From Chara braunii (taxonomy: Eukaryota; Plantae; Charophyceae): a DNA stretch of 64,000 nucleotides. The notes below the pieces were generated by a model. The model searched no databases. It was given only the letters and a program-made list of their open reading frames with translations, and had not been told where the DNA came from. Of this stretch, positions 35,981 through 61,061 are shown one piece after another. The DNA is taken from the NCBI GenBank assembly GCA_003427395.1, contig BFEA01000001.1, positions 10,423,030-10,487,029 on the forward strand, read 5' to 3'. Each line of letters opens with the position of its first letter. Position 1 is the first letter of the stretch. The position numbers were made by a program, and so were the translations under genes.

Positions 35981-36412
35981 CCGGGCCTTAAAGTCCCGCC
36001 AACCTCCTACTTCTATCCCGGTCCTTAGTCCTACGTTCCTCCTCCCTCAATTTTTTTAACCTATTCGTGCCAACGTTCAGGCAGCCTTTCAAAAAATCAG
36101 TGATAACCAAAGTCCCTGGGCCATCCCAATCCCTAATAAGTGTCATCTGATTTCGGGTAGGTACAGGGTCCCAGTTACCCTAAGGTCGGTCTACAGATCA
36201 TCACCAGGTCCCCGATTAAACCTCATGTCGCTCCATAAGTATTCCACCATCATAAAAACGTTGTTTCTCCCCAAGGTTACGACTCGCCATTCTACATCAC
36301 TCCCTCGAAACTCGTAGCTCGCAGAAAGTGATACTTGCCACCCATTGCCATGCTCCAAGCGCAAGCGAGGGCATGTAAGTTGCCGCGGCATTCGGACGCG
36401 TCTTGCCACCAT
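35981..36412 (-). pseudogene. Unknown-family paralogue P4 (N-terminal part, cut by the LTR copy at 35980)
   Basis: MVARR...VSLSASYEFRGSDVEWRVVTLGRNNVFMMVEYLW...DL*TDLRVTGTLYLPE aligns without gaps to P3. Confidence 0.7.
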
Positions 36413-36469
36413 TGTCGATTGGTGAGCCTCTGCATAGTAAAAAAATAAATGAATATAGCCTATCTTCCT

Positions 36470-36758
36470 TTACACAATTAAGTCCCTACTCACTACCTTC
36501 CTTTTCTTCGGTTCTTTGTTCTTCTCACCTTGGCTCCTACCATTATCATTCTCTCGTTCATCCCTCTTGGCTATCCTTTCCTCTGGCAACTTGAACAACC
36601 GATATATGTCGTCTATGGAGGTCAGTCCGCGAATCACTTCTCGCCTAATGACACCCCACATAATTTCGTCACTGATCAGCGGGACTCTCGGCCTTGTTGT
36701 CACAGCTGCCTGCAGTATGCGCAACACTTCATATCCCTGCTCTTCCTCAAAGGCCCGG
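36470..36758 (-). pseudogene. C-terminal part of paralogue P3 (joins 58197-58756)
   Basis: Excising 36764-58196 plus 5 bp gives in-frame ...GAMTYREY-RAFEEEQGYEVLRILQAA...EPKKRKVVSRDLIV*. Confidence 0.75.
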
Positions 36759-37897
36759 TAGTATGTGACATGCCAGCTTCCGGACTTGCGCTATTTTTCG
36801 CCCCCCCCACCCTTCTCTCTTTGTCGAATTTGGTTAACAACCCGATGAGGCCTCTTTTTGTATTTTCAATGAATGTAATATACGGGACCTTCGAATCGAT
36901 TTTTGGAATTTCATCTTTTGCGAATTCGGGAATTACATGGGAATTACGCGCGCCTTAGCGAGCACGCTAGGAAATTGGGTTGACGGTTAGGAATTCTGGA
37001 ATGGACGAAATATGACGTGTCCTTTCTTGCGCATGAATGTTCTCAATTTCGTCTTGAAAAGCTCTGAGAATTTTTGCAGGAATCTGAATAAGTATAGGAC
37101 TTTCTCCCACGCCGCTCGCTCTACCGCAAGGATATGGTACTTTTCAATTTGAATTAGCTGTAACTGTTTCGGTGCCCTTTTTGCGTTCGTATCAGCGCCA
37201 TGCATGCGATTCTCCCCTCCCCGTTTCACTCGCTGCCCTCGACACTCTTTTCTTCACACTCATGCTCCTTCTCTCTCTGTAACCGTTTTTCATCTCCCTT
37301 TTACTTTGCGCACCTTTTCTCCCCTTCTTGATTGTCTGAATCTTGGTTCCGTTTCACACTATTCTTCGTGCTCTTCCTCTTCCCGCTCTGATCCTCGTGC
37401 CGAAATACCCTGTCGACCCCCTTTCACTCCCTCTAGCCAAGGAGACACGCAGTAAAAGAAGGAAATTCCTGATACACGACGATTCTGATTGGCTACAGCT
37501 GGGATCCAAAGGATCGACATGACTTTCGTCAGACAATCCCTGAGCCTTTCCCTACTCCTCCCTGTCTCAGTCCTATGCCCGTCTATCTTCTTTTCCGCAG
37601 CTATAAATTTCACAAGCGCTTCCGAAAATCTCTCTCTCGACTCATCAGCCCGCTTCCGGAAAGCTGTGGCTAGGTGGCATGAAGGAAGGTGCGAGTCGAA
37701 AAGTCCCGACGAGCTCGCTGTAGTCTCGACACTCGACATGCTGGATCGCCCGACGGACTGTGGGATCCGAGCAGGGTCGTGCAGGGGCTAAGTCGGTGGG
37801 GTGACAATCGCTATGGTGGATTTGGAACGTGATGGCTGGGATCGTCAGTGCAAGTGAGACGTTCGAGTCGGAAGTGAGTGAGTGCACGACCTGGGGC

Positions 37898-37935
37898 CTG
37901 TCTCTTATACACATCTAGATGTGTATAAGAGACAG
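37898..37935. other. Nextera mate-pair junction adapter (assembly artefact) with a flanking 129-bp false duplication
   Basis: CTGTCTCTTATACACATCT+AGATGTGTATAAGAGACAG (two Tn5 mosaic ends). 37769-37897 is repeated exactly at 37936-38064. Confidence 0.98.
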
Positions 37936-38456
37936 GAGCAGGGTCGTGCAGGGGCTAAGTCGGTGGGGTGACAATCGCTATGGTGGATTTGGAACGTGAT
38001 GGCTGGGATCGTCAGTGCAAGTGAGACGTTCGAGTCGGAAGTGAGTGAGTGCACGACCTGGGGCTATGGTGAAATTTTATGGCAGAAGTGATTTCTTCCC
38101 TTTCTTTCCCAAAATTTGTATCTTTGAGTGTGAGTTCTGATCGCTCGGCTTTTAAGCGGGGATATTCCTGGACCAACTCGCCTGACATTCTGTGATTGCT
38201 TTCTACTCGTCCCTCCTTCCTGGCCTGCGTCCATACTCTCTCCCTCTCTCCCCTCCGGTCATGTTATGTCATAATGGATGAATTATGGTAACTTGCTTCT
38301 CTCACTCTGGTATGTGCATGCGGTGAGTCGTGATTAGAGATTTTGTTATAGCACGATTGCAAGGACGATTGGCTGATCGACTGAATGATCTGGTTGCCTT
38401 GAGTGACAAACGAATGATGTATGATTAAAATCTGTTTTGAGCTTGCCCTTGCTGCC

Positions 38457-38900
38457 ATGTGGACTGACGACCCTGATCCGACCAGACGCCAACTTCCCGT
38501 ACCCCCGCCACGCCCCTTCCCGTACAACGAGGAAAGGGTACGTGTATGCAAGTGGGACGTACGAGAAGCCATCACCAAGATTGGAGGGCGTTACTACTTT
38601 CCTCCCGAAACTCAGTGCTCGGGATTCGTCGGTGCGGGTTTTGTTATCATTGATACGCATTTCCCGCCCTATTCGTTGTTGTTGTCATTTAACGAATTGA
38701 TCGTTGTTCCGTGGATGGCAGTAGGGCCTCATTGGCCTAACACTCTGTGCAGCGATTGTCGTCACTTCGAGCATTACCAGGTCAAGGGTTGTCACTATCG
38801 TACACGTGGCGAGGACGAACACAAAGAGAAGGCTACTCGATTGAGGCCCTCCACGTCAGACTCCGAGTTGTGTAGTGAGCGTCGACGAGACCTCATCTGA
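38457..38900 (+). CDS. LTR-embedded ORF of unknown function (homologue of 32737-33147)
   Basis: FVGAGFVIIDTHFPPYSLLLSFNELIVVPWMAVGPHWPNTLCSDCR, followed by STSDSELC (compare SDSDSEFC in the other LTR). Confidence 0.6.
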   Translation: MWTDDPDPTRRQLPVPPPRPFPYNEERVRVCKWDVREAITKIGGRYYFPPETQCSGFVGAGFVIIDTHFPPYSLLLSFNELIVVPWMAVGPHWPNTLCSDCRHFEHYQVKGCHYRTRGEDEHKEKATRLRPSTSDSELCSERRRDLI

Positions 38901-41900
38901 AAACGGGATACCACGTGTGTACCTGCCCCCTTTCACGCGAAACGAAGAGCGACGGCTCGCTGGGAAGTTCAACGATACTTTTTAGATTGAATTTACCATA
39001 GTTGTGAGTCCCCGCACACGCCTTTATCTCCCTTAAAACCTGCGCAGCGATACATTCGAACCAACACGGGGGATTTCCAGTTATGTCAGTGTCCCCGCAC
39101 TCAATTTTCCAAAAATCTTTGGCACACCCCATCTTTGCTGCCTTTCCCCATTGTCGGTGCGAATACTCTTACAAGGGTATCCACCCTGGCTTTTGCAAGT
39201 GACATAAAATAAGTTTGGTTTAAAGTCTAAATATTTCGCGCGAGGCGCGACTGCGTCTGTGACTTACGTTGGCTGAAGGTTGACTAGAATAGAGAGTGTC
39301 TGGGCGCACGGGCTTGAGGCGCCCATTATTTTATTTATTGATGACTGAAGAACCGGCGTGATCGCCGACCAGATTTTTATTTATTTATGATTTGAATTAT
39401 GATTAAAAATATTTTTGCCTTTTGATTGGTGCGCTTGCGCGTGACTTGTGCGACGTGCGGAAAACGGCGTCGACAACAATGTGATTTTGAAGACATTTCG
39501 GTAGATCTACGCGTCGCGCAGTATTCTCTTATTTAGGTGTCCGTCAGCCTTGGGCCTAACACTATTGGTTACAGCGTCTGACTTTCATCTGAGAGATTCA
39601 GGGATCGAGATCGAGCAGCGACGACGCGGGATATTAGAGTAGCGCGAAGGGGCCGAGGGGTTGAGGGCCCGACGGGGCTATTCCCCTTGGTTTTGCCGTT
39701 AGCGGAGTCGCAGCGGCGCCAACGGTTCCTTTTACAGTCATCGCTGACCATTAAAATTTTAAATGTGTTATTATTTATCGTCATTCTTAATTATTTTATG
39801 TTTTAGTGTTCTCTGAATCAAGACGTGGCGCCGGGTTTGAGGGCCGTCACGGCGGCCGAAGACCTTGAGCGTGCACTTCCCTTAGTTGACCAATGGGGCT
39901 TTGTTGGGGGACCGTAGCGATGTCGCGGCAAGTTGAAGACCATGGTGGACCCATCACTACTTCGGTCCTCAAAGTTCTCATTTGAATATTTGCTACTATC
40001 ATTAAGATCTGCATCAGGACCCCCCCCTCCGACTGGAGCCATGCCTCAGGCCTGCAGTAGGCCCGGAAACTTGATTTTGTGTGTGTGGGCGGCCGCTGGT
40101 GGGCAGTGGTGGCCAAAGGCAGTGGCGCAGTCCGCCTGACCGGAGCAGGCCAGAGATAGACCAAGGGGAGGCTGTAGTGGGATGGCAGCGAAGCCAGCTG
40201 GCCACACTGCTCGTCGGGCAGAGTATAGAGGCGAAAGACTCATCGACCGTCTGATAATCGGCCATTTTCGGGCTATCGCTTACGGAAAAGGTGACCAAAC
40301 TGTGTTGGGCATTGCGGGGCCGCCGTGGTCGGATGCTGCATCGGTGGCAGCGGGGCAGAGCAAGGCAGCAGAGCGATGGGGCTAAGGCAAGGAACGTAGC
40401 GCAAGCAGAGGGAAACGAACCCGGGCTGGAAAATGCGCAAGGTGCATGCGAGAGCCACAGGCTATGGCAGAAGGAGAAGGGAGTGGAAAACATGAAACCC
40501 GCCCGATCCTTGATGAAAACGGGTGGGGAAAGAGTCGAGGCTAAGTTTTCTAGGCAGGGCGAATTAGATTATGCAGTTAGTTTATGGGTTAGAGGGTTGT
40601 GTAGAGTGGTTAGTGAGAAAAGCACCGTGTGAAGGTATGGCAAAGATAGAGGGAAAGTGAAGAAGAAGGAGGTGGATGAATACATATCTCGCCCATTTCC
40701 GGACGAAATCGGCTGAGGGAGGACTCAAACCGGGGGTTTTGGGGCGTGGCGGCCCCGATTCTGAAGTCATAATTAGTAAAAAGTTAGCAGAAGAAGATTT
40801 AGTAGAAAAAAGTGCTGCGTGAAAGTGTCGGGAGAGGTAGATATGACAGAGAGTGGGGAGTTTAGCCCATCCGATCCTTGACAGAATCGGACGAGGGGAG
40901 CCGCGTTTTGGGTGATCTGGAGTAAGATGGATGCGATGAAGATCTTAGTTCTGTTAATACGTTAGTAGGAAGGTGGATAAGAAGGGGCTGCATGGACGGG
41001 GGGGGGATAGCAGAAAGTCCAGGTATCTAATTGTGTTCAGGCGGTAGGTTCATTCAATTTTGCTCACTGTATCGATGGACGTAGCCGCTGCTTATCCCTC
41101 TACGCATACGATTCGAAGGCGGTATATCATTTTACATTCTAGCGGGAGATCCATTTATGACTTGAAGATAGTGGGGCAGTTGATGCCACACGCATTGGTC
41201 GGAGTCCCGGTACGACTCGTACGGGTCTCGATCCCGGTGAAGTTTTATGTAGGCTACCATCCTCGCTTTTGTTAGTGCTCTTGGTCTTCGCTCTGTTGCC
41301 GCATGATAACAACGGTGATCCCCATAGCAGTCGAGCTGACAAAGGAATAACGAGTAGGAGAGTGAAAGGATAAACGAGAAGAGAATGGGGAGATGGGCAA
41401 AAGGAGAGTCAGGCAGAGGCAGGGGAAAGGTTGAAACTAAAGACTCACCTGCTCACTGATACACTGCCCGAACTGAGGAGATTGCAGGCCTAGCTGCTGG
41501 CCAGTGGGCCGCCAAATGCATTAGCCGAAGTGACGAGGAGGGTCAACCACGGGGTGAAAAAACCTTGCCTTGCAAACACGCGTTGCCCAGTGAGCCACTG
41601 ACAGTGGAGTAAGGTCCGCCGTGAAGATTTGCAGATTGACTGGTGTGCTGCCGTTTATACCAGGCAGAGTAGTGTGAGTCCGACCACGGGCTGAATACTT
41701 GTTAGAGCTTGGTAAAGGCTACACAATCAGCACATGCGCACACTCCACCTGTTGAGTGACCAGCTAAACTGCGGTGACTGTTGTCGTTATGGCATGAGAG
41801 GGGACCGAGCTTCGTGGTGCTGACCCGAGTCTGAAGCCATAGCTAGTCGGACTGCGCTGCTGTTACACTGTGGTGCCGTAGAAAGAAGACTGTCTTGAGC

Positions 41901-42564
41901 TGTAACCTGTGCATTTCGGGTCACGAAGTTATGAAATGGTTGAGTCCTTGAAGGAGGCAGAGTCGTCGTTGCGAAGTGGGAGAGTCGTCAGGGAGTCAAC
42001 GGTTGAATGATTTGACTTCAGTCGACCAGGCTGGTAAGCACTTCCGCCATCATCGCGGGGTCCTCAAGCGTGTCAAGGTATCAAGGACTTCTCCCGCGAG
42101 TCTAAGAGCACCCTCCTTGGATCTGAGAGACTGAATCATTCTTCCTCTGCCTTTCTTACTCTAAGTCTAGTATATTGGTTACGAGAGGAAGGCGGCAGGC
42201 GGGATTGCAACCTGTAGGACCGCATCAAGACTTTGTGGGGAGTCCACCCACCGATTGCGGGAACTCTGCCGGAACCTAGGCGAGGTTCTAGAGGCAGGGA
42301 ACCATCAGGTAAATCATCTCTGTCTGTATGACCCACCATGCCGATGTCTGCCTATCTCCCTGTTGTTTGACTGATGTATGTACGTGATTGCCCCTATGAT
42401 TTTACTTTCTTCCAGTACTTAATCAGACTAAATGGAAGGAGTGTATGAAAGTGAAGCATAAGTTTCATCTTTATTTCTGTCTGAAAACAGATTAAGGTAT
42501 GAAATGAGGGAAGATGGGAGGAATGCAGACTGCATGCGTTTGACCGAGTCAACCAAGGACTGGG

Positions 42565-43168
42565 CATTGTTTTTAAGCTGAATGGCTCAGGGCTATGTTT
42601 ATTTGGCTGTTTCTGAAGGGTCAGGCATTGTTTCTAAGCTCAATGACATGGTTGTTGTGTTTTTTTCTGAGGGTTTGCCTGGCTGAAGGGTTTAATCACT
42701 TGTTTCATTCTGAGGGAGGATTTTTTGTCTAAGGCTAAGCATTGTTTCTAAGCTGAATGGTTTAGCCTGAAACCACGCATATAAGTATAAACTGAGTGTA
42801 AAAGAAAATACTTTACTTATATTTCCATGTGAACTTGCAGTTGGGCATTGTTTCCAAGCCGAATGGTCCACACTAAGCCATATCACTAAGTAGAGAAGGA
42901 AAACTCCAGAGTATAATTGGAAGTAGTCTGGGCAAGCTGAACATTGTTTCCAAGCCGAATGGTTCAGTCCCTGCCCATATTTGCATTTTCTTTTGAGAAT
43001 AAAGTCAGAAAGTTATTAATATTTGGATATTAAACAGTTCAGGGCGGCTAGGCATTGTTTCCAAGCCGAATGGTCTAGTCAAATGCCCAAAGGAGAGAGA
43101 AGTGGTAGTGTAACCTGTTCGTGTATATCTTAAAGGCTCACTAGACATTGTTTCTAAGTTGAATGGTC
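42565..43168 (+). repeat. Seven interspaced 22-bp motifs CATTGTTTCYAAGCYGAATGGT
   Basis: Copies start at 42565, 42626, 42740, 42846, 42942, 43053 and 43146. The spacers are dissimilar. Confidence 0.9.
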
Positions 43169-43469
43169 TAGCATTGTGCCATATGTAAGTTGGGTATAAG
43201 GGTTGAATCATCAGAGGGTTTCATGAACTATCTTATATAAAGTGACTTCGGGCTGGTGAGAGTACTTATCTTTGTGGTTTGGCCTTGCATGTGACTGAGT
43301 GAGATTACTACTTGGTCCGAGTTTCAGTTTGATAGGTAGCTGTTTTAGACGCTCGCCACGTGCTAGAGCCACAAAAGTTAGTTTCAATTCCTGCATTTTC
43401 TAGGTTAAGTTTATTTTTACTTAGGTCGATTTCTGAATTTTCTGGGATCATTTATTATACTTGGTCTTG

Positions 43470-43792
43470 TATAAATTTTGGTAAGGCACTTTCTCTACGG
43501 GAAGTGCTGCCGAAATTTCTACAAAACCAACGAGTTAGTCAGATTTTATCTTTTTCAGGGTCCAATTTTTAAGACTTTTTGGCTTAGTAAAAATTTGAAA
43601 AACCTCCTTTTCTAAAGGGAGTGCTGCCCAAATTTTTACTAGTTCAGGGAGTTCGACAAAATTTGGCTTTCCAAAATTATAGTTGATTTTTTTTTTCATA
43701 TTTGAGTTATTATAAATTTTGAGAAGGTATTTTTCCTACGGAAAGCGCTGCCGAAATTTTCTTAATTTATAGGAGTTAGGTTATATTTTGAC
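43470..43792 (+). repeat. Three diverged ~120-bp tandem units with core GTGCTGCCGAAATTT
   Basis: Cores near 43504, 43621 and 43746; the same units occur in the 3' LTR at ~56270-56590. Confidence 0.75.
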
Positions 43793-44439
43793 AGGTGGCA
43801 ATCCTAAAAATCCACTCTGTATAGAGGAGATTCTGTCAGGGTCTACCTTCTTTTGGCGCGTCGCCTATCCGATTTCCGCATCGGAGAGTTATAGGAAGAC
43901 TACTAAGGAACTAGGAGTGTGGTCGCGTTGTATGTTTTGTGTCGTTTCGTGTATATGTACGTGTGCGTGTTTTTTATGTTTTGTAGAGTGGTGTGCTCGT
44001 GGAGTGTGGGATGCGTCCTAGTCGCCTGACGACGAGTCGCGCTTGGGACCTCGACCCCCTAAGATGTCGGATCGCGTGCGGGTCCGATAGAGGCGTATTA
44101 CTGCGCGTACCCCCTATGCTACAACGAACGAGAAACACCCTCGACTGGTCCACCTCTGCGATTGCAGCTGATTAACTTTCGTACTGTGGACTGGTAGCTC
44201 GGTGGGGATACGCCCACCGAAGGGAGGTGACAACTCCCGTAAGGTGGAGGTAAGCCGTACCTCACGTAGGCCCTATCCTATCGTAGGGGCTCGCGAGAGG
44301 TATGGCGGCGCACTCGGTCAGAGCGGCTTGTGGAAACTCCATATGTATTTGCGACGAGGATTAAAACCAACTCCTGCGTGACGTGGCCGGGATGGTCCCG
44401 CGCTGCCTTGTGTGGTGCCGGACCGATGCGTTCGACAGG

Positions 44440-44458
44440 TGGCGCCGTTGCCGGGGAT
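44440..44458 (+). promoter_or_regulatory. Primer-binding site, tRNA-Asp (Athila-type)
   Basis: TGGCGCCGTTGCCGGGGAT, 2 nt after the LTR end. Confidence 0.93.
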
Positions 44459-45552
44459 AACGGTTGTTTGCCGTTGTCCCTGGTGGAACGATATCCGGGT
44501 ATGGGAATGTGATAAATAGTCAAAGAAAGAAGTTTTTTTTTGAGTTTAATTGTTTGATGGTATAAAACAGAGTGAAGGTTGACTGTGCGAGTTGGTTTTG
44601 TTTGATACAGTAAGGGTGGCACGAGAGCGATAAGCGTTTTGACTATGAGCTTACGTACTCTGACTGATAAGATGGTAGTTGGAGATGGTACGTCTTCTGG
44701 CCACGATAGTTGACAAATTTGGACGTTGCTTTGCATGGTTGATATGGTCAGGGTAAGATGAGGGAACGTCGATATGAGTAAGAACGTCCATTGAGGAAGT
44801 TGGCCCTATAAGGTACCTATTATGGTTGAAAAAGTTATCTGAGTGGTGATGAGAGCGACTTTGTACTTTTGTATTAAAGTGAGATCGAGGATGAGTAAGG
44901 GAGCCTATTATGTTAGAGGTCGTCAAAGGACTTCGAGGAGAGTTAAGCTAATGACGTTCAAAGTCTTTATAAGTATGGATATGGGATCCTTGGGTCTAGG
45001 TTCTAAGCGATTGTTCAATTTATATAGTCATAGGAGGCTGAGGGCTGCCTCCATGATGTGTTTGAACTAGGTGTATAAGGTTGTAGGTAGACGCAGTACA
45101 CGCCATGTTGAGACCTCAATAGAAGAGACTACGTGACGTAGTAGGTCTGCATAGTACCCTCTCTGCAAAGGAAGACTATTTTGTTCACCCTTGATAGGAC
45201 TATGAGTTGAAGTTGATGTTAGACATTCGCTTGAACATTTTCGGACTTGGACCATCCACGTGAATCTATGAGGTTAGAGCTAAGGACTTGAGACTATTCT
45301 CTTCTAAGGGCATCCCTCTTGAGTTATATATTGAACTCATCCATATATGTCAGATGTTGTCTGAATAAGCTTGTCTAATATCTCATCATGTAAGGCTAAG
45401 TGCTTAGTGATTATATTCTTTTAATGATTATCCTTGTCAGAAATATTTACATAGGCTATGTATCTGGAGTATGTATTTGAACTTATCAAGTCTGCAAGGA
45501 TTTATATGAGCGTCTCAAGTCCAATTATCAACCTATGGCTGTCTATTAAGTT

Positions 45553-45789
45553 CTACGTTGCATAGAGTACACGTACGGGGGCTTCCCGTACAAAACGTAC
45601 AGGTTATTTTTATACGGGATATGTACGGGAACCTGTACGGGAACCTGTACGTCTTGTACGCCCCCGTACNNNNNNNNNNNNNNNNNNNNNNNNNNNNNNN
45701 NNNNNNNNNNNNNNNNNNNNNNNNNNNNNNNNNNNNNNNNNNNNNNNNNNNNNNNNNNNNNNNNNNNNNNNNNNNNNNNNNNNNNNNNN

Positions 45790-45837
<48 letters not shown>

Positions 45838-46055
45838 TCATAAAAAAAATCCGAAAAAAAAACTATGTGATGCAACAACGCAAACCAAGCAACATTTGGC
45901 TGAGCATCATCTTCAGATTCTTATTAGAATTTGAGAAAAAAAATAAAACCAATACCGGATTAAAAAAAAAAAAAAAAAACTCGTACGGGGCCCCTAGCGT
46001 ACGAGTAGAGTACGAGTCCGTACTCGTACGAGGGTGCGTACAAGTGGCAACGTAG
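45553..46055. mobile_element. hAT-type MITE (contains a gap)
   Basis: 9-bp TIR CTACGTTGC/GCAACGTAG, perfect 8-bp TSD ATTAAGTT (45545-45552 and 46056-46063), many CGTAC/GTACG subterminal motifs. Confidence 0.92.
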
Positions 46056-49168: not shown

Positions 49169-52086
49169 GCAGTGGGCGTCGTGTAATCAAGTGGGTCTGC
49201 GGCCGATGTATAATCCATGTGTGTCATGGGCACAAGGCAGCTGTTTGGGCCCACAAATGAGCATGATGACGCTTGGGCCTCCCGCAATGCAGATCCGACC
49301 AACTTGACCTATGGGACTGTTGCGGCCACCAACCCAATAAGTGTCACAAGGCGGCGTGGCCGGTGGAGGAAGCCAAACACGGCAAACTGGAAGAGGCCGC
49401 GGGGATGGAGGACGAGGCAATGAAGGGCGTGGTGGCGGCAGAGGAGGCATTAGTGGGTGTGATGGACGTCGGCGGAACCATAAGTGGAATACAGGGAAGA
49501 GAAAGGTATGATAAACGGTAATTCAGATGGTAGCCGAGTAGGTAAAGTAGCGAAAGGAACGGGAAAGAGATGGTGGCGTGAAAGTTGATAAAAAGATGGG
49601 GTTAAAGAGAGTGTAGTAGTGCGAAGAGAGGAGTAACCCTAACCCTTAAGTTTGGAAAATATTCAGTCAGATGATGGTCCTGGATCGCCTTGGTTTGTTT
49701 TACCTTCAGTAGATTCAGTTGTATATACAAGGGCGTAGAGCTAGGATAGCAGGCTAACCAATTGTGTGATTTTAATTTCGTATTTTAGTCAGCAGGGAGC
49801 CTGACAATATACCAAGAGAGTTTCGTAATAATGGTCTGGTAAGGTAACCCGAGTTGTAGGCGGGAGGGACCCCAATAGAACAACTGTATATGTGGGGTAT
49901 GTTAGGCCTGCCTCAAATCGCGTTATTGGAATGTCTCAAGTGGATAGAGCAAGGAGTGGTTTTAAGGACATTATTACGAAATGAAGAGTCTATTCCACTA
50001 GACCTATCGTTGAGAGAAGAAGATATGAGACCTATTTTGTGTTTAGGTCAGGATGGTTGAACATGTGTGAGAAGTATGAAGGACTTGGGAAGAGACCTCA
50101 GCATATGTGAGGCAGACTCTCTAACCTAGAAGTGTAGTATATAAGGCTTGTGTATGAATGATTTTTTATGTTGCTTGGCTACTTAGATATGTCTTGAATT
50201 ACTTGGATCCCTCCGATTTGAGGGGTGTGATTACGTCCTGATCAAGACTGTTTCAATTTTAGCTCTGGTCAGGGAGACCGCGATTTTTGTGTGATATCGA
50301 TGCCAGTGTGAGTTGAGATTGTTCAACTCTGTGTGTATATATATAATTCAAAATCATATTGGTTCGCTTTTGAGTTGGGATATTATGTTCTGAAGTGTAT
50401 ATTTGAGTTGAGATTTTATCTGAGACTATCTCCTTATATATGACGATCACATTCACTCTCACATGTGTGGTTTTATCCTGATGTATGATGGTTTTGTGAG
50501 AGAGATGTATGAGGAACGTCTTATGTGTTTGTATTTTGAGAATGTGAATGAATTTGAACTGTCTACTCTTCGGTATACTCGTACGATCTGCCCATGGACG
50601 GGTGATAGGGCCGGGTATAAGAAGAGGGAGTGCAGTCTGTCTTTGTGAAAGAGTGTGAGAATCCTAAAGGATCTAATGAGTTTTTTAGGCTCGAACGCTT
50701 TACCATGCCTAATGTTTATTGTTGAGTTGTGATGAGGACCCATAAGTTGGTCCCTTTGTTTGAGTTGTTTTATGGTAAAGACGTCTTTGAGTGGGAACGC
50801 AGTCTTTTGTTTATTTGGAAGACTTATCTTTAGAGAGGGAAAATGTGTTAAAGAAAGGTCGCGTGAAAGTTCATCCTAAAAAGAGAAGGGATGACTGGGA
50901 GACCTATTGAGTGATACCTCCTTCATATGAAAGGTGGTTAATAAATTTAATGGCATGAAAAACTGATTTTGAATGATAAAGACTGACGAGAAGAACCAAG
51001 TTTTTTGTTTGGTCATTTGGTAAAATTTTGGAGGTCGCAAAAATGATTTATTTGGGAGACGTCGCTGAGAGGTGACCTTCTTACTCTGATCAAGTAGGGA
51101 GGTCACGGCCTCGTGAATCTGGCGGTGATTTTGTTTTGTGAATGTGGAGAGGTTGTCGTGTTTCTCTGTGTTGTCCCACAGAGGACTGGTAAATACCTTT
51201 TATGTGTGACAGACCTTTGCGTAGTCCCACAGTAGGCCTGTATTGTTGCGACACACCGTCCAACCACTTGTGCTAATTTTAGGACATTTATGAGAATACC
51301 AAGCTAACGGTAAAGTTTAGCATCACTAGGGCACAACCCCTAGTGTCGGCTGCTGATCGGCATAACCTGAACAGTAGGCCTACGTCTTGCCAAGGGAGTA
51401 AAGACTTAAAAGGGTGTGGCCACCTAAGAGGGTCTTACTCCTGCGGAACGGCGTGGGATAGGAATCGAGTTGAGTCTTTTTGAGTCCTGATTGAATGCTT
51501 ATCAGGAGAAAGTCTATCTCAGCGCAACCTGCGAAGGCACTACCGCTAAAATAACGACGCGGCCGTAGATCTGGCACGATCACCCAGGCTACCGTGGACC
51601 AAGATGGAGACCTAGCCTTCCTGTACTAGACTGCAGGAGGCGTTTGAGATAAGATTTATGTATATATATATATATGTTTCATTGCGAGAATTGTTGGAGG
51701 GAGGCAAAAGTGTCTTCAAAGTTCTCAGTTAGGGCTCGCGTCCCTAATTTTGGCCCTGCTTGCAGGGTAGAAATTAAGAACGCCTAATGAGGAGCTGACG
51801 TTTGTCTAGGACAAAGGGGAAATGACAACTGAGAGGGCCGCTGAGGCTTATGCTGTAGTACGTATGTCTAGTACACCGACATCCTAGTGTCAGGACAATA
51901 GAGACCCATGTTAGAATCCTGACGGCATATAGTTATATGGGCTTGGATTGTTGGAGGCCTCGAACCTGAGTCTGTTGGCTAATCGGATTGATTCCTTTCT
52001 CGTCAGCGTTTTGGATTATGGTTGAACTGATAGTTTTTTTGATCCTGCGAAGCGACGGGGACGTCGCTTAATATGGTCCGGTAAGC

Positions 52087-55000
52087 TGTCGGTGCAAATA
52101 CCCTTACAAGGGTATCCGCCCTGGCTTTTGCAAGTGACAAAAAATAAGTTTGGTTTCAAATCTAAGTATTTCGCACGAGGCGTTGCTGCGTCTGTGACTT
52201 ACGTTGGCTGAAGGTTGACTAGAATAGAGAGTGTGTAGGCGCGCAGGCTTGAGGCGCACGTGATTTGATTTATTGATGACTGAAGAACCGGCGTGATCGC
52301 CGACCATATTTTTATTTATTTATGATTTGAATTATGATTAAAAATAGTTTTGCCTTTTGATTGGTGCGCTTGCCCATGACTTGTGCGACATGCGGAGGAC
52401 GACGTCGACAACAATGTGATTTTGAAGACGTTTCGGTAAATCTGCGCGTCGCGCAATATTCGCTTATTTAGGTGTCCGTCAGTGCTAGAACCAGCCTTGG
52501 GCCTAGCACTATTGGTTACAGCGTCTGACTTTCATCTGAGAGATTCAGGGATCGAGATCGAGCATCGACGGCGCGGGATATCAGAGTAGCGCGAAGGGGC
52601 CGAGGGGTTGAGGGCCCGACGGGGCTATCCCCCTTGGTTTTGCCGTCAGCGGAGTCGCAGCGGTGCCACAGTTCCTTTTTCAGTCATCGCTGGCAATTAA
52701 AATTTTCTAAATGTGTTATTATTTATTGTCATTGTTAATTATTTTTATGTTTTGGTGTTCTCTGAATCAAGACGTGGCGCTGGGTTTGAGGACCGTCACG
52801 GCGGCCGAGGACCTTGAGCGCGCGCTTCCCTTAGTTGACCAACCGGGCTTTGTTGGGGGACCGTAGCAATGCCGCGGCAAGCTGCGGACCATGGGGGACC
52901 CATCGCTACTTCGGTCCTCAAAATTATCATTTGAATATTTGCTACTATCATTAAGATCTGCATTGGGACCCCCCCTCCGACTGGATCCATGCCTCGGGCC
53001 TACAGTAGCCCCGCAAACTTGATTGTCTGTGTGTGGGCGACCGCTGGTGGCCAAAGGCAGTGGCGCAGTCCGCCTAACCGGAGCAGGCCAGAGGTAGACC
53101 AAGGGGAGGCTGTAGCGGGCTGGCAGCAAAGCCAGCTGACCACACTGCTCGTCGGGCGGAGTATAGAGGTGAAAGACTCATCGACCGTATGGTAATCGAC
53201 CATTTTCAGGCTATCGCCTACGGAAAAGCTGACCAAACTGTGTTGGGCGTGGCGGGGCCGCCGTGGTCGGATGCTGCATCGGTGGCAGCGGGGCAGAGCA
53301 AGGCAGCGGAGCGACGGGAAGAGTGGAGTCGAAGTTTTCTAGGCAGGGCGAATTAGATTATGCAGTTAGTTTGTGGGTTAGAGTGCTGTGCAGGGAGGTT
53401 AGTGAGAAAAGCATCGCGCGAAGGTATAGCGGAGATAGAGGGAAAGTGGAGAAGAAGGAGGTGGATGAATGCATATCTCGCCCATTTCCGGACGAAATTG
53501 GGCGAGGGAGGACTCAAACCGGGGGTTTTGGGGCATGGCGACCCCGATCCTGAAGTCATAATTAGTAAAAAGTTAGCAGAAGAAGATTTAGTAGAACAAA
53601 GTGCTGCGTGAAAGTGTCGGGAGAGGCGGATATGGCAGAGAGTGGGGAGCTTTGCCCATCCGATTTTTGACATAATCGGACGAGGGGAGCCGCGTTTTTG
53701 ATGATTTGGAGTAAGATGGATGAGATGAAGAAATTAGTTCTGTTAACAAGTTAGTAGGAAGGTGGATATGGGAAAAGAAGGGGCTGCATGGAGGGAGGGA
53801 GGATAGCAGAAAGTCCATGTATCTAACTTTTTTCAGGCGGTAGGTTCATTCAATTTTGCTCACTGTATCGATGGACGTAGCCGCCGCTTATCCCTCTGCA
53901 CATACGATTTGAAGGCGATATATACTTCTGCATTCTAGCGAGAGATTCATTTATCACTTGAAGATAGTGGGGCAGTTGATGCCACACGCATTGGTCGGAG
54001 TCGCGGTACGGCTCATACGGGTCTCGATCCCGGTGCAGTTTTCTGTAGGCTACCATCATCGCTTCTGTTAGTGCTCTTGGCCTTCGCTCTGTCGGCGCAT
54101 GATAACAACGGTGATCCCCATAGCAGTGGAGCTGACAAAGGAATAATGGGTCGTTAGAAAAGTGGAAGGATGAACGAGAAGAGAATGAGGAGATAGGCAA
54201 AAGGAAAGTCGAGCAGAGGCAGGGAAAATGTTGAGACTAAAGACTCACCTGCTCATTGATACGCTGCCCGAACTGAGGAGATTGCAGGCCTAGCTGCTGG
54301 CCAGTGGGCCACCCAATGCATTAGCCGAAGTGACGAGGAGTGCCCGCCACGGGGTGAAAAAACCTTACCTTGCAAACACACGTTGCCCAGTGAGCCACTG
54401 ACAGTGGAGTAAGGTCCGCCGTGAAGATTTGCAGATTGACTGGTGTGCTGCCCTTTATAGCAAGCAGAGTAGTGTGAGTCCGACCACGGGCTGAATACTT
54501 GTTAGAGCTTGGTAAAGGCTACACAATCAGCACATGCGCACACTCCACCTGTTGAGTGACCAGCTAAACTGCGGTGACTGTTGTCATTATGGCATGAGAG
54601 GGGACCGAGCTTCGTGGTGCTGACCCGAGTCTGAAGCTATAGCTAGTCGGACTGCGCTGCTGTTACACTGTGGTGCTGTAGAAAGAAGACTGTCTTGAGC
54701 TGTAGCCTGTGCATTTCGGGTCACGAAGTTGTGGCATGGTTGAGTCTTTGAAGGAGGCAGAGTCGTCGTTTGTGAAGTGGGAGAGTCGCCAGGGAGTCAA
54801 TGGTTGAATGATTTGACTTCAGTCGACCAGGCTGGTAAGCACTTCGGCCATCATTGTGGGGCCTTCAGGCGTGTCAAGGTATCAAGGCCCTCTCCCGCGA
54901 GTTGAGAGCACCCTCCTTGGATCTGAAAGACTGAATCATTCTTCCTCTGCCTAACTTACTCTAAGTCTAGTATATTGGTTACGAGAGGAAGACGACAGGC

Positions 55001-58000
55001 GGGATTGCAACCCGTAGGACCTCATCAAGACTTTGTGGGGAGTCCACCCACCGATTGCAGGAGCTATGCCGGAACCTATGCGAGGTTCTGGAGGCAGGAA
55101 ACCATCAGGTAAACCATCTTTGTCTGTATGACCCACCGTGTCCATGTTTGCCTATCTCCGTGTAGTTTGACTAATGTATGCATGTGATTGCCCCTATGAT
55201 TTTACTTTCTTCCAAGATTTAATCAGACTAATGGAAGGAGTGTGTGAGAGTGAAGCATAAGTTTCATCATTATTTCTGTCTGAAAACAAATTAAGGTATG
55301 AACTGGGGAAAGATTGGAGGAAGGCAGACTGCATGCGTTTAACTGGGTCAACCAAGGGCTGGGCATTGTTTCTAAGCTGAATGGTCCAGGGCTATGTTTA
55401 TTTGGCTGTTTTATGAAGGGCCATATATTGTTTCTAAGTTGAATGGCGTGGTTGTTGTGTTTATTTCTGAGGGTTTGCCTGACTGAAGGGTTTAATTACT
55501 TGTTTCATTCTGAGGGAGAATTTTTGGTCTAAGGCTAAGCATTGTTTCTAAGCTGAATGGTTTAGCCTGAAACTAGGCATATAAGTATAAACTGAGTATA
55601 AAAGAAAGTACTTCACTTATATTTGCATGTGAACTGGCAGTTGGGCATTGTTTCCAAGCCGAATGGTCCAGCGCTAAGCCATATCACTAAGAAGAAAAGG
55701 AAAACTGCAGAGTATAATTGGAAGTAGTCTAGGCAAGCTGAACACTGTTTCCAAGCCGAATGGTTTAGTCCCCTGCCCATATTTGCATTTTGTTTTTCGA
55801 ACAAAGTCAAAAAGTTATTAAGTTTTGGATATTAAACAGTTTAAGGCGGGTAGGCATTGTTTCAAAGCCGAATGGTCTAGTCAAATGCCCAAAGAAGATA
55901 GAAGTAGTATTGCAACATGTTCATGTATATCTTAAAGGCACGTTAGACATTGTTTCTAAGCTAAATGGTCTAGTATTGTGCTATATATAAGTTGGATATA
56001 AGCGTTGAATCATTTGAGGGTTTCATGAACTATCTTATATAAAGTGACTTGGAGCTGGTGAGAGTACTTATCTTTGTGGTTTGGCGTTGCATGTGACTGA
56101 GTGAGATTACTACTTGGTCTGAGTTACGGTTTGATAGGTAGTTGCTTTAGACGCTCGCCACATGCTAGAGTCATAGGAGTTAGTTTCAATTTCTGCATTA
56201 TTTTGGCTAAGTTTATTTTTACTTAGGTCGAAATCTGCATTTTCTGGGATCATTTATTATACTTGGTTTTGTATAAATTTTGGTAAGCGACTTTCTCTAC
56301 GGGAAGTGCAACCGAAATTTCTACAAAACCAAGGAGTTAGTCAGATTTTGTCTTTTTCATGGTCCAGTTTTTCAGACTTTTTGGCTTAGTAAAAATTTGG
56401 AAAACCTTCTTCTCTAAAGGAAGTGTTGCCCAAATTTTTACTAGTTCAGGGAGTTAAACAAAATTTGACTTTCCAGAATTATAATTGATTTTTGTTTTCA
56501 TATTTGAGTTATTATAAATTCTGATAAGACATTTTTCCTACGGGAAGCGTTGCCGACATTTTCTTAATTTAGAGGAGTTAGGTTTTATTTTGACAGGTGA
56601 CAATCTTGGAAATCCACTCTATATAGAGCAGATTCTGCCAGGGTCTACCTTTCTTTTGGCACTTTCTTAGAGGTAGACTCGGTTTACGACTCAACTCCAA
56701 TCCACTTTTGTCACTCAAGCTAAAGGCTTTAGTGTTGTGATTTGAATTGTTTTGTTGTGTTTTCGCCCGGACTTTATTTGAATGGTCATTTAAAGAAAAA
56801 TATTGAGTATTTTATTTTGAGAATTGCACAAAGAGTGAGGCTTGTATGGCTAAAAGCAAGGGGTGTGAGTGTAGAGAATGGTTGAAGTTGACCCCGTGTA
56901 GTGCATGAACTTTTTGGTTGAATCTTTGATGTGATTGCAGGTATGTTTGGTGATTAAGACTTTGGATTTGACTGTCTGCGCTCACATACATATATATATG
57001 GCTAAGAGGAGTCCCACTGTGACTGTGAGAAGTGATCGTCCTATATTAATAACCCTCTATATATATGTATTCAGTGTTTCGTGTGGCCTACTGTGACCGC
57101 GCGTAAGGGTTAAACAGATTATGTTTTCAAAGAAAATGAGACTTCCCCTTTTTAACATTTGTTTTTTAGAATTTTTATGGTTGGACGTTATAATCCGTGG
57201 CAGTCATCAAAGTCAAACCCCTTTATTTCTCTCGAGGCCGTAGATGATGGAGCTGGTCTCTAGGGCAATAAGAGTTGATTGTCACCACAGGTATGAACCT
57301 GTGTACCACCCACGCTCCGCAGGGTGCAGAAGAGGGTGTGGTTTTCAACCTCACTTGGCGGTTGTCCACCGTCGAGAGATCACCCCCAAAGGCGCGTATC
57401 AGCCGACACTTGAGTGTTGAATGCGACCCTCGAGATTAACAAGGACCGCATAAGCATGGGTACTACATAGTACGCCATCATTGCGACTGCTTGCGTATGT
57501 TTGCATTGAGAGTCGATATGAGTTAGCCCGGCGTCCGCGCAATTTTATACTAAGTCTCACACGCGTCGCGTATCTGATTTCCGCATCGGAGAGTTATGGG
57601 AAGACTACTAAGGGACTAGAAGTGTGGTCGCATTGTTTGTTTTGTGTCGTTTCGTGTATATGTACGTGTGCGTGTTTTTTATGTTCTTTGGAGTGTGGGA
57701 TGCGTCATAGTCGACCAGCGACGAGTCGCACTTAGGACCTCAGCCGCCCAAGACGTCGGTTCGCGTGCGGGTCCGATAGAGGCGTATTACCACGCGTACA
57801 CCCTATGCTACAGCGAACGAGAAACGCCCTCGGCTGGTCCACCTCTGCGATTGCAACTGATTAGCTTTCGTATTGTGGTCGGTAGCTCGGCGGGGATACG
57901 CCCATCGAAGGGAGATGACAACTCCCCTAAGGTTGAGGTAAGTCGTGCCTCGCATAGGCTCTATCCTGTCGTAGGGGTTCGCGAGAGGTATGGCTGACGC

Positions 58001-58126
58001 ACTCGGCCAGAGCGGCTTGCGGAAGATCCATATGCATTTGCGACGAGGATTAAAACCAACTCCTGTGTGACGCGGCCGTGGAGGTCCCTCACTGCCTTGT
58101 GCGGTGCCGGACGGATGGGCTTGACA
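52087..58126 (+). repeat. 3' LTR of element B (6040 bp)
   Basis: TGTCGGTGC...TTGACA, colinear with the 5' LTR, with the same seven-motif array at 55364-55970. Confidence 0.93.
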
Positions 58127-58196
58127 CCTGGCCCCCTTTCGCAAACCAAAACACTCCGACCGGAAGGCAGTGCAGGGGGTGAGGTTGAACGTCACA
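58127..58196 (+). mobile_element. Last 70 bp of the family-A solo LTR
   Basis: AACACTCCGA..GGAAG..GGGGTGAGGTTGAACGTCACA matches the end of the A LTR (AACACTCCGA..GGAAG..GGGCGTGAGGTTGGGCGTCACA). Confidence 0.85.
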
Positions 58197-58756
58197 TATT
58201 CCCGGTACGTCATGGCCCCCTTGAAGTCTAAACCGGTTGGTACTAGTACCACTCGCCGGACGTGCTCTGCGCCACCCATTCGCTGTAACAAAAAGGGTGG
58301 CAACCTCATTCGTACGTTTTTACTTGGCAGGGTGAAGGTACCTGCCATAGCGGTTTTTACTTCTGTCGTTACGTTATCTAACTCAGGTTCTGCAAACGCA
58401 AACCCCTCCCGCCATGTTAGTTGCCATGATCCTTTGAACATATACAGGGGGCCATCCCTAGATGCCAAAGTGATCGCAAAGGTACACCGACTTTCCTCCG
58501 ACAGATACAACGTCTCTTTAGCATAGATGCACTCCGGGAGATCCAGATTTCAGGCCCCAATTTTGTCCGTCGCATGCCATTATAGTTTCACTATCAGATA
58601 TACTGCATCCTCCACAAACTTTATACCTACCCAGTCCATTACCGGGTTACTCACCCCACTACTTGTTGACATGCTTATCTCCACCCTACTATCCGTTTTG
58701 CGTGGTGGCAGGATCCTAACTGGTCTGTCTTCCCAGAGCGTCCGTCTTCAAGCCAT
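58197..58756 (-). pseudogene. Unknown-family paralogue P3, N-terminal part
   Basis: MA*RR...VEISMSTSSGVSNPVMDWVGIKFVEDAVYLIVKL*W...TLYLSEESRCTFAITLASRDGPLYMF...LDNV...RLPPFL; one frame with three stops. Confidence 0.75.
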
Positions 58757-58879
58757 CACGTTGCGTCTTCTTGTTTCTCCGTTTGCGGTCGGCAATTATA
58801 TCCACAAAATTTTACGTGTTTGTCTTAGTCTTCCTTAATTTACAGAGCTGGTTTTCTGTATATACATTAATTCATCGTC

Positions 58880-60191
58880 TTTTTCCCGTTCAATGCATGT
58901 TTTGACCCTTTACATGTCTCTCTGACGCCCTACTTGCTCGAGAGCTAGTTTTCTTTAGTCAAAACCATAGGGATTCAAACAATAAGAACACGTTGCCTAA
59001 ATAAGAGGGGGTCGTCGCCACCTCGTGGCGAAGTATAACATTTCTCGTTTCGTAATCCACCTCGGTCCGATCGTCCCTGACTGCTCTTAAGATGATGAGG
59101 ACCTCCTAAGCCCTGTCATTGTAGAAAGACCATTCTTCCAACGAGATTTTGTAAAACTCGTCGGACAGCCACGAGAACTCGAGGTATACATCGTCTAGGG
59201 ATTCCACTACTCTGTAAATATGTTCATAACACAAACGGTTATCGGGTAGTCGAAAATTCAGGAATGAAAATTCTGAAGTGAGAGTTTTTGGCCGTCTGAA
59301 AATCCTGAATGGTCCTGAAGTGGTGAAAGGTCCGAAGACCCTGAAAACCACCTGTTTAGGCAGGCTGCATCCTAAAGTGGTGAAGGGTGTCCTAAAGTGG
59401 TAAAGTGAGAGTTTTGGGCAGTTTGAAAATCCTGAATGGTTCTGAAGTGGTGAAAGGTCTAAAGACCATGAAAACCACCCTTCACCACTTGAGGATGCAG
59501 CCTGCCTAAACAGGTGGTTTTCATGGTCTTCGAAGCTTTAAGCACTTCAGGACCATTCAGGATTTTCGGACCTGAATGGTTATGAAGTGGTGAAAGGTCC
59601 GAAGACCCTTAAAACCACCTGTTTAGGTAGACTGCATCCTGAAGTGGTGAAGGGTGTCCTGAAGTGGTGATGAAAAATACGACTGTTGTTAACCTTCTCT
59701 CGTTCATAACCCCCGGACCAATTTGCCACAAAGCTCAACATCTAGGCCTGGGCTGATTGACACAACAGCCTGAATTCCTCCCATCCTCCCATAAGGACTT
59801 TGTTGCTAATCTCATCTCATCCCTCATTGACAAAACTATTTGCCTGATTTTTAGTCCAATGTTATGCTTCTCCTAAGATCCATATCGGGTCTTGTCCGGA
59901 TGCTAACGTTGTGCAAAACAGATGCCAACCTTTTTGCAACAGACAAATTGTTTCGAGGAACTCCACATCCCCCTTAACCATCTCGTCCCATCCTTCATCT
60001 TCCCTTATCGAGCTCCATATTCGTTCTACCCAGAAATATGAGAATTCTGAAGCGATCTCCAACTCGACCCAGCCACAGATAGTTCATCTCCACTTGTTTC
60101 TTGATGGTATGGACATTTCTACTCCCCCTCTGAGTTATCTTGGTCTCCATCCCCTAAGCTTGCGATCATTTAGACACTATTCTCTAGCCAT
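58880..60191 (-). pseudogene. Unknown-family paralogue P2, interrupted by a repeat insertion (3' end approximate)
   Basis: MARE*...VEMSIP...GWVELEIASEFSYFWVERIW...TICLLQKGWHLFCTTLASGQDPIWIL...RA*EVLIILRAV...VILRHEV...NVFLLF. Confidence 0.72.
59255..59675. repeat. Insertion of ~125-bp units in direct-direct-inverted-direct arrangement
   Basis: Unit cctgaatggtcctgaagtggtgaaaggtccgaagaccctgaaaaccacctgtttaggcaggctgcatcc... at ~59304, 59430 (partial) and 59571; reverse complement at ~59478-59568. Confidence 0.88.
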
Positions 60192-60249
60192 CTTCCTACT
60201 TGCACGACGCTAACCACCCATTCCACCCGTGCCTGTGAGCCCTTCTTCT

Positions 60250-61061
60250 TAGAAGTTTCAATCCTCTGTCTCGTTTTACTCCTCTGCGTCGATGAAGTCG
60301 TCTTCCTCTTCGCAGAATAACTCCCCTAGCTCATTCAAAAAAGTTTATCATATTGCCACATGCTTGTAAACTATCTTCCAATGCGTGGGGCTTGGGACAT
60401 AGACGTCATCCATGCTAAGACAATTTAACATCTCAACTAGTTCTTTTGCCCAACTTCCTTCGAAGGGTCTTATTTCTACTGATTGGTCGGAATAAGTCTT
60501 GTCCGGTGCATTGGTATTGCCCGAGGTTTGTCATGGACTGACATATCTGAACTAGCCTGCTCCGGGTCCCGAAGACGGCGTCTGCCAGGAACGGTGGCAA
60601 CACACACCTCATTGTTTTAAGTGGTTGTCTCACGTTTTCTTTATCCTTGAGTTCCACGCTTACGTCTACCTCATCCAATTTCATCTTTACTCGCTTACAA
60701 GCTGCCCATACTACTTTCCGTTCCGCCCATCTAAACAGTTTGAACGGGACTATCCCGGTGTCAAATCAACAACCATAGTGTTTTCCCCTTCTTGGGATAG
60801 ATAAATCCATCATCGAACCTCCACTGTCCCTCGAAATTCCATATCAGTCAAACTTAGCGTCGTCCGCGTCAAGCTGACCTTGGTCCATAGGGTCTCTATC
60901 CAAAGAAAGACGTCCCCCTCGTCCAACATTACGGTCTGATAGGCCGGTTCTAGGTTAGTCCAGGTTCCCTCTTCCGGGAGGATGACTGATACCTTATCCT
61001 TTACATCTACCGACATTTCCGGTCCACTATAATAGATAGGAGATGATAGTCACCTCGCCAT
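60250..61061 (-). pseudogene. Unknown-family paralogue P1 (3' end approximate)
   Basis: MAR*...YQTVMLDEGDVFLWIETLW...IYLSQE...LDEVDVSVELK...PLKTMRCVLPPFL...IRPFEGSWAKELVEML...WKIVYKHV...ELF, with frameshifts. Confidence 0.72.

Follow-up and report, generated by a model that had tools for sequence, protein, structure and literature searches.

A decayed array of four paralogous genes ahead of gag-pol in a Ty3/Gypsy retrotransposon family of Chara braunii

The minus strand of the window analysed here, a 64-kb stretch of the Chara braunii genome (contig BFEA01000001.1, positions 10,423,030 to 10,487,029), carries four paralogous reading frames, P1 to P4, which lie head to tail with starts at 61061, 60191, 58756 and 36412, confirming the arrangement claimed in a preliminary description of the locus. 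Each frame begins with M(V)AR or a stop-mutated form thereof, which bears out the common start, altered in P3, that had been proposed. P1 (60276..61061, minus strand) is a decayed accessory gene with internal stops, two frameshifts, near 60756 and 60485, and an acidic C-terminal tail. P2 (58959..60191, minus strand) is also decayed and is interrupted by a MITE; its end, earlier put at about 58880, is here moved to near 58959, where P2 relatives end. P3 is divided into an N-terminal part (58197..58756) and a C-terminal part (36470..36763), both on the minus strand, while P4 (35982..36412, minus strand) consists of its N-terminal 143 codons and was rightly said to lack its end, being cut by the end of the 3' part of a B-type LTR (34793..35981, plus strand), the third in the window. 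The size of about 280 aa once given for all four does not apply to P1 and P2, which measure about 250-265 aa each. Upstream of P1 lies a repeated region of the host element, likely its 5' leader (61062..62441, minus strand), with many related contigs up to 62441 and a flat depth of 9.5 beyond. A plus-strand ORF in this upstream region was rejected as a candidate gene: all three frames are poor in stops, matching the prediction from base skew, and it has neither a Pfam match nor an internal match.

The array is known from one named species, and the copy in the window is dead, broken by stops, frameshifts, the MITE and nested LTR elements. None of the four genes, originally presented as ORFs, stays open: there are 20 stops in 937 codons of P1-P4, as against 128 in 1860 off-frame codons. 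The MITE inside P2 (59222..59710) is a palindromic, high-copy sequence of 480 bp with a summed contig depth of 1e5, bounded at both ends by 9-bp direct repeats (at 59222 and 59702), and from the length of these repeats we take it to be Mutator-like. P3 is split at 58197/36763 by a nested LTR insertion of 21 kb. Its reconstruction by removal of this insertion stood up in the main, since residues 1-187 of the relative P0019 map to 58756-58196 and residues 187-278 to 36763-36524, and both halves follow one another without interruption in 15 database proteins. Two details of that reconstruction did not: only 3/5 positions match between the two flanks of the insertion, which makes for an imperfect 5-bp target duplication, and two tyrosines are found at the junction in 11/11 members listed by a motif search, one more than the earlier join gives. 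The gag-pol region of the host element is absent from the window.

The insertion in P3 is the LTR-like element A (36764..58196, plus strand), which ends in TGTGAC...GTCACA and is itself parted into 36764-39151 and 58127-58196 by the enclosed element B (39152..58126, plus strand). The LTRs of element B (39152-44437 and 52087-58126) are 86-91% alike, and a perfect primer-binding-like site occupies 44440-44457; no pol was found within this element, and its flanks show no matching target duplication. Element B contains a single member of the P1-P4 family, P5 (47128..47820, plus strand), which is frameshifted near its start, is 58-67% identical to Chara gene models, and matches P1-P4 in hhalign with a probability of 95% and an E-value of 3.7e-8. 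Directly behind P5 lies a gag-like ORF with a CCHC knuckle (48113..49168, plus strand), which shares 22% identity with gag of the host type (E 5e-5) and also follows P5-type sequences in 6 gene models.

Comparison of the protein alignments with shuffled controls supported the relationship between the array genes, with z-scores of 15 (P2a-P3a), 6.9 (P1a-P4), 6.4 (P1b-P3a) and 5.8 (P2a-P4) and 0/1000 shuffles scoring as high in each case; the pair P1a-P3a is weak (z=1.9, 62/1000 shuffles as high). Over the 10 P1-P4 pairs tested, z was 1.8-14.6 in the coding frame, at most 2.7 in the other five frames and at most 2.2 for the DNA, in agreement with the original remark that the DNA is not obviously alignable. 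In a phylogenetic tree each array position forms its own deep clade, with support of 100/100 for P1, 95/87 for P2, 100/99 for P3, 100/99 for P4 and 100/99 for P5 (the P2 of the window falls in a clade with 99/94, the value of 95/87 being obtained with P0041 included). The stems of these clades measure 0.3-1.3 changes per site, and there are subclades within P1, P2 and P3; the window P1 is 57-73% identical to the gene models of its clade. This frame-specific similarity and the position-specific clades support the earlier suggestion that P1-P4 were shaped by past selection on the protein, as judged from sequence comparison.

A profile search of 1.84 billion proteins recovered 64 at E<=0.001. Of 24 relatives looked up, 21 are hypothetical proteins of Chara braunii, and all relatives with a name are gene models of Chara. 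We excluded P0064 (E 6e-4), a repeat protein, as spurious, and P0067 and P0069-P0072 match solely through gag/pol columns. The order P1<P2<P3<P4 is kept in 15/15 models with at least two paralogue types (14 plus P0066). Using gag/pol probes taken from 3 members of the same protein set, and with gene models that are predictions on decayed copies, gag or Gypsy pol was found downstream in 48/66 family proteins and upstream in 5/66 (2 with both sides, 3 upstream only), with neither in 15/66. The fixed order of the relatives and the gag or pol behind them place the array in a Gypsy family and thus leave little room for a virus or a host operon; the endogenous virus that had been offered as one origin is not supported. 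Because no gene model found holds all four paralogues together, the full set is directly seen solely in the window. In five models of one subfamily P2 is missing and P1 is followed by P3 or P4, which may mean that the subfamily has a three-gene form or that the predictor skipped an exon; in P0008, two pieces of P1 stand one behind the other. Nothing was found among 28 candidates when the decayed half of P3 served as query of a word-based search, a peptide-pattern search of viral and metagenome contigs, which detects close relatives only, gave no relatives, and the ESM Atlas returned no usable match for two members.

The class of the host element emerges from the relatives. Pfam finds their pol domains in the Gypsy order protease, RT, RNase H, integrase, as in P0046 (RT 360-484, RNase H 479-607, integrase 820-982), with the protease additionally ahead of RT in P0021 and P0025, and their best match among solved structures (PDB) is the Ty3-G polyprotein (E 9e-44). 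P0005 and P0013 are named 'Retrotransposon gag domain' in UniRef, P0008 has a CCHC motif, P0018 matches DUF4100 below the cut-off, and in P0011 gag precedes pol. These findings support the proposed cassette of accessory genes in a Gypsy-type element. The RT motifs presumably resemble those of fungal Ylt1-like Gypsy elements. Neither an LTR of the host element nor its primer site or polypurine tract was found within the window, the region upstream of P1 having yielded no primer-site motif, and Pfam gave no match to an extra archaeal-type RNase H in 53 scanned models, which as spliced predictions can drop domains.

An AlphaFold2 model of a relative, computed from a 40-row alignment (pLDDT 80.9, pTM 0.75; an earlier fold from 9 rows, with pLDDT 42, was unusable), shows an alpha+beta domain and a helical domain. 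No transmembrane segment was detected in 7 members, the highest 19-residue Kyte-Doolittle mean being 0.69-1.19 in 7/7, and an identification with sORF2 or a FAST fusogen was rejected on this ground and on the globular model. The family is thus predicted to comprise soluble two-domain proteins. Most of the 33 columns that the paralogues share hold G, P, W or aliphatic residues, as would suit proteins that bind rather than catalyse. In 6/7 members D+E exceed K+R, and the N-termini of P3 and P4 are rich in arginine. Pfam yielded no match at E<=10 for 7/7 members, the plant mobile domain (PMD) PF10536 included, whereby a Tat/Ogre-type PMD extra ORF was rejected as well. PHROG reported transposase/integrase families in at most 5/40 members, with nothing for the first member, one search of PDB sequences gave 0 matches and another a single one at E 0.96. 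Foldseek, queried with the whole two-domain model, had no row at E<=0.001 among the 224 from PDB and the 474 from BFVD at E<=10; the lack of a match does not by itself make the fold new. Neither helical PMD/MAIN-type structures nor a fold link to any known anti-silencing protein appeared in the fold searches. Searches of Pfam, PHROG, PDB sequences and folds thus leave the family unassignable, as first claimed, although such searches are no proof of novelty.

With P1-P4 lying in order ahead of gag-pol in a Gypsy family, each position forming a deep clade, no membrane segment in the proteins and a single-gene form, P5, in the related element B, we favour, with somewhat better than even confidence, the explanation that P1-P4 are a decayed four-gene cassette of a Chara braunii Ty3/Gypsy family, read in sense before gag-pol and likely encoding soluble, non-catalytic binders of host factors that weaken host control. 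Very probably, one gene before gag was tandemly duplicated and the resulting four paralogues were retained by selection as the family split into subfamilies. The proteins could tentatively be regarded as host-binding counter-defence factors, by analogy with VANB/VANC or retroviral accessory proteins; the paralogues would bind different host factors, and host control of the element would be weakened as a result. The acidity of most members speaks against a VANC-like role in which DNA is bound directly.

As to how such genes would be read, gag is the fifth ORF behind spacers of 57-140 nt. The P3-P4 spacer (36413..36469, minus strand), for which our measurement agrees with the 57 nt originally given from the P3 stop to the P4 ATG, contains a T-rich tract and CAG; this candidate 3' splice site lies 17 nt before the ATG and, by an ad hoc score, ranks first among the 146 YAG sites that the host pieces contain. 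Such a strong acceptor-like site points to spliced monocistronic messages rather than polycistronic ones; P1, P2 and P3 have no comparable acceptor in the window copy. At just short of even confidence, we propose that LTR-driven transcripts are spliced to an acceptor before each ORF and would so yield the accessory proteins and gag, against which stand re-initiation, leaky scanning and internal promoters. In oligo-dT reads from a single study, with 6-12% of each run covered, P1-P3 had hardly any depth in 2/3 runs; the third run showed 0-12x on the two strands, the excess being antisense if the library is of the usual type; no sense transcripts were seen over P1-P3 in these reads, to which relatives below 80% identity are invisible.

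Other roles for the proteins are conceivable. The rather unlikely idea of a virus-like 'gene accordion' envisages an undescribed fold that went from one to four co-operating paralogues before gag, forming a hetero-oligomeric counter-defence or shelter complex, with gag-pol read as fifth and sixth ORFs by splicing as in complex retroviruses or by re-initiation. A purely structural role, in a co-assembled lattice or scaffold sheltering the RNA or particles of the element, would suit a fixed set of four as a hetero-oligomer and conserved positions that are structural residues. It also draws on the wide fold comparison, in which the top match is to the N-terminal part of chimallin, the shell protein of the phage nucleus (rmsd 4.0, 108 residues), with three chimallin entries among the first 11; but a Z of 5.8, with 7% identity and the next unrelated row at 4.9, is under 8 and may represent a common arrangement, chimallin is absent from the Foldseek list, and element B manages with one member only, which leaves this role improbable. 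The proteins could alternatively regulate the expression of the element itself, through translation re-initiation, RNA export or splicing, and thereby enable the reading of gag. In its fifth place gag needs some such device, for which caulimovirus TAV is a precedent, and the arginine-rich N-termini of P3 and P4 are in keeping with it; yet the proteins are mostly acidic, and as one trans-activator would suffice, four deeply diverged copies are left unexplained, so that we give regulation only a slight chance.

Chara has plasmodesmata, through which movement-type proteins might carry the element between cells. Extra ORFs of plant elements have been proposed to act in this way (PMC7264820), and a 5' accessory ORF of MDG1-group elements reportedly drives their spread from cell to cell (10.1101/2025.03.14.642691). 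We nonetheless consider movement very improbable here, for the proteins, unlike sORF2, have no transmembrane segment, and the alpha+beta plus helical model has no movement protein among its listed BFVD matches, none of which reaches E<=0.001. An origin of the array as an endogenous virus, or as a captured cluster of host genes that merely lies near retrotransposons, is largely refuted and retains hardly any probability, although intron-less genes and short spacers have a viral look: in 48/66 family proteins the same gag or pol follows, all named relatives are Chara gene models, and the single form P5 likewise precedes a gag-like ORF inside LTRs.

Returning to the favoured accessory cassette, 5' extra ORFs are known from plant Gypsy elements, a close parallel being that of Tat/Ogre, a sense ORF of at least 250 codons between the 5' end and gag (PMC4408406, PMC6317226). 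Unlike this PMD-coiled-coil protein, as those papers describe it, P1-P4 are four paralogues without a Pfam match; an extra RNase H as in Tat/Ogre was not among the Pfam results for the pol-bearing models, which as predictions may have lost domains. The array shares with sORF1/sORF2 of the Drosophila MDG1 group the presence of more than one selection-kept accessory ORF upstream of gag, but those are reportedly of about 110 and about 70 aa with one membrane fusogen (10.1101/2025.03.14.642691), whereas P1-P4 are four soluble paralogues of about 250 aa. Env-like ORFs of Athila, SIRE and Bagy-2 are also extra sense ORFs conserved in most family copies, but they are found downstream of pol, before the 3' LTR, and have transmembrane segments (PMC7264820), and an env-like identity was rejected since gag or pol is downstream in 48/66 proteins and upstream only in 3, with no transmembrane segment. 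Our model for the proposed role, VANB/VANC of VANDAL Mutator elements, are lineage-specific, fast-evolving accessory genes of plant transposons; they belong to a DNA transposon, the structure of VANC is related to that of MAIN, and accessory transposon proteins are predicted to make many host contacts (PMC13547354), but no sequence or fold link to the array was found.

In the literature covered, which was without the Chara genome paper and the supplements of PMC6317226, we found no description of a four-paralogue array. LTR retrotransposons of plants often carry extra ORFs, whose origin and function are called an open question (PMC7264820, PMC6317226). Here the same genome shows such a gene in single-copy and four-paralogue states, in fixed order and with a confident model that has no match in any family searched, and the array offers defined soluble proteins with which to test extra-ORF function and gag expression in a close algal relative of land plants. 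In addition, about 60 'hypothetical' Chara gene models are explained as retrotransposon pieces.

The four diverged paralogous frames of the array, P1 to P4, which the preliminary description had placed on the minus strand, are indeed found there, and in protein alignments against 1000 shuffles, with X standing for stops and with the gene pieces P1a, P1b, P2a, P3a and P4 treated separately, most N-terminal pairs exceed every shuffled control (P2a-P3a z=15; P1a-P4 z=6.9; P1b-P3a z=6.4; P2a-P4 z=5.8). The P1a-P3a pair is weak, with 62 of 1000 shuffles reaching the real score. Across the 10 P1-P4 pairs this similarity is restricted to the coding frame, other frames giving z <=2.7, and the DNA is, as had been claimed, not obviously alignable (z <=2.2). 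Codon agreement is 0.23-0.43 at third positions as against 0.43-0.56 at second positions, a contrast that is partly built in by aligning via the protein. Judged by sequence, selection has evidently acted on the P1-P4 reading frame. The copy in the window is dead: there are 20 stops in 937 coding-frame codons, as opposed to 128 in 1860 off-frame codons, with relatives carrying W, R or Q at 13 of the 20 stop positions; P1 has two frameshifts, P2 contains a 480-bp high-copy MITE flanked by 9-bp direct repeats, and P4 breaks off at 35982, where it meets the end of a third LTR of the type found in element B, the retroelement nested in P3. The gag-pol of the host element is absent from the 64-kb window.

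A profile search with P1-P4 and P5, a fifth, single family member located in element B, recovered 64 proteins from a set of 1.84 billion. Look-ups of 24 of them gave 21 C. braunii gene models and three unnamed entries, one of the latter being rejected as spurious. Fourteen models contain at least two paralogue types, and every one of them keeps the order P1<P2<P3<P4, as does the related protein P0066; the neighbour pairs P1-P2, P2-P3 and P3-P4 each occur in gene models, and no single model among the profile matches holds all four paralogues. Gag or pol lies downstream in 48 of the 66 domain proteins, upstream in 5 (2 having both) and on neither side in 15, while the pol of the relatives is in Gypsy order and best matches Ty3-G (E 9e-44). 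These observations bear out the proposal of an accessory cassette of a Gypsy-type element and establish the place and order of its genes. In one DNA run, contig depth is high over P1-P3 and the upstream sequence as far as 62441 and falls to a flat 9.5 beyond it, which marks this stretch as part of a repeat family but gives no copy number.

That P3 is split by an insertion is certain, since residues 1-187 of the related protein P0019 map to 58756-58196 and residues 187-278 to 36763-36524, and both halves are consecutive in 15 database proteins. The proposed join is right as to the halves; at the exact junction the 11 family members listed by a motif search have one tyrosine more than it gives. 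The insertion, 36764-58196, has the ends TGTGAC...GTCACA and encloses element B (39152-58126, + strand, about 19 kb), whose LTRs of 5.3-6 kb (39152-44437 and 52087-58126) are 86-91% alike and which has a perfect primer-binding-like site at 44440 that we take to be tRNA-Asp/Athila-like. The outer flanks agree at 3 of 5 positions, so that the 5-bp target duplication is not clean, and the flanks of element B do not match each other; two simple insertions therefore do not account for the whole history. A similar CC-N-GG-like stretch follows two B-type LTR ends (58127-58131 and 35981-35986), and these two sites perhaps reflect a target preference of such elements. Between identical 129-nt copies (37769-37897 and 37936-38064) lies a perfect 19+19-nt inverted sequence, 37898-37935, presumably a Nextera mate-pair junction adapter and hence an assembly artefact.

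P5 (47128-47820, + strand) directly precedes a gag-like ORF that encodes a CCHC knuckle. It is 59-67% identical to C. braunii hypothetical proteins and homologous to P1-P4 (hhalign probability 95%, E 3.7e-8); P5-gag fusions occur in 6 gene models. No pol was found in element B, which is likely to represent a non-autonomous family. A more distant P5-related branch (P0056, P0061, P0063, P0068; 28-36% identity) has its own gag-like region, which brings the element groups spanned by the family to at least three. In a tree built from 67 domain rows, of which 5 are window pieces and 62 are the database domains (from 85) that passed a length filter, each cassette position has its own supported clade, with subclades within those of P1, P2 and P3, and the P2 and P3 clades are sisters (support 96/88). 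As its root is arbitrary and the tool warns that the long P1 and P4 branches may join falsely, it does not fix the duplication order. On the simplest reading one gene in front of gag would have duplicated in tandem, all copies being retained while subfamilies arose; the ancestral condition, we infer, was a single gene.

Tat/Ogre elements (PMC6317226, PMC4408406) and MDG1-group elements (10.1101/2025.03.14.642691) are already known to carry extra ORFs upstream of gag, and a review describes the origin and function of extra ORFs as mostly unknown (PMC7264820). No four-paralogue cassette was found in the literature searched, which did not extend to the Chara genome paper or the PMC6317226 supplements. 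Env-like, sORF2 and plant-mobile-domain identities were each considered for the array and rejected. The array is real, its architecture is unusual and its protein family could not be assigned.

An AlphaFold2 model of P0041, a 252-aa relative sister to the P2 clade, built from a 40-row alignment (pLDDT 80.9, pTM 0.75), has an alpha+beta domain at about 19-159 and a helical domain at 162-247. With it Foldseek returned nothing at E<=0.001 in the PDB or BFVD; in a wide structural search the top match was the N-terminal part of chimallin (Z 5.8, rmsd 4.0, 108 residues), with three chimallin entries among the top 11, a likeness we treat as a lead, possibly a common arrangement on the tool's scale. 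No membrane segment was found in family members, acidic residues prevail in 6 of 7, and the model is that of a soluble protein. Columns common to the paralogues are mostly G, P, W or aliphatic, with few polar candidates for catalysis. We tentatively prefer, at somewhat short of even chances, that the cassette proteins would bind host factors in counter-defence, by analogy with VANB/VANC (PMC13547354); such a role would suit non-catalytic paralogues that are confined to one lineage, diverge fast and belong to a selfish element. A structural role for these soluble proteins is rather unlikely, regulation of their own element more doubtful, and a function in movement slightly less probable again.

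As the fifth ORF, gag would lie beyond the reach of plain scanning, and by an ad hoc score the best acceptor-like site among the 146 scored in the host pieces is the one in the P3-P4 spacer, P1-P3 showing none as clear. For these reasons expression by splicing is the favoured reading, with a likelihood approaching one half. In several gene models, upstream parts that differ between models are joined to a single position ahead of the putative start of gag; as this depends on which acceptor the predictor chose, it is no independent proof. Three oligo-dT runs of one study (6-12% of each run) gave no sign of sense transcripts, two of them having a depth of almost nil and the third one of 0-12x on both strands, in a comparison blind to relatives under 80% identity.

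Elsewhere the window contains an intron-less minus-strand frame of 952 codons with a nucleobase-ascorbate transporter domain (3242-6100; PF00860, E 2e-61) and, on the plus strand, a decayed LINE with a long ORF1-like frame, endonuclease and reverse transcriptase (8198-14080), a DDE_Tnp_4/Plant_tran transposase fragment (15661-17133) and a separate Gypsy element (22949-33520; 300-bp LTRs, 89% alike; gag-PR-RT-RH-INT). The 3.8-kb 3' region of the last includes a 231-codon frame (30101-30796) with no Pfam match. A type III hammerhead ribozyme match (63769-63824, minus strand; 37.2 bits, E 1e-4, short of the gathering score) lies inside a very high-copy repeat, 63618-64000, perhaps a retrozyme or Penelope-like terminal repeat, which has strong, strand-specific coverage in each of the three RNA runs. 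Read on the plus strand, a tandem 230-bp duplication (62986-63425, 76% alike) is proline-rich; by contig depth it sits in single-copy sequence.
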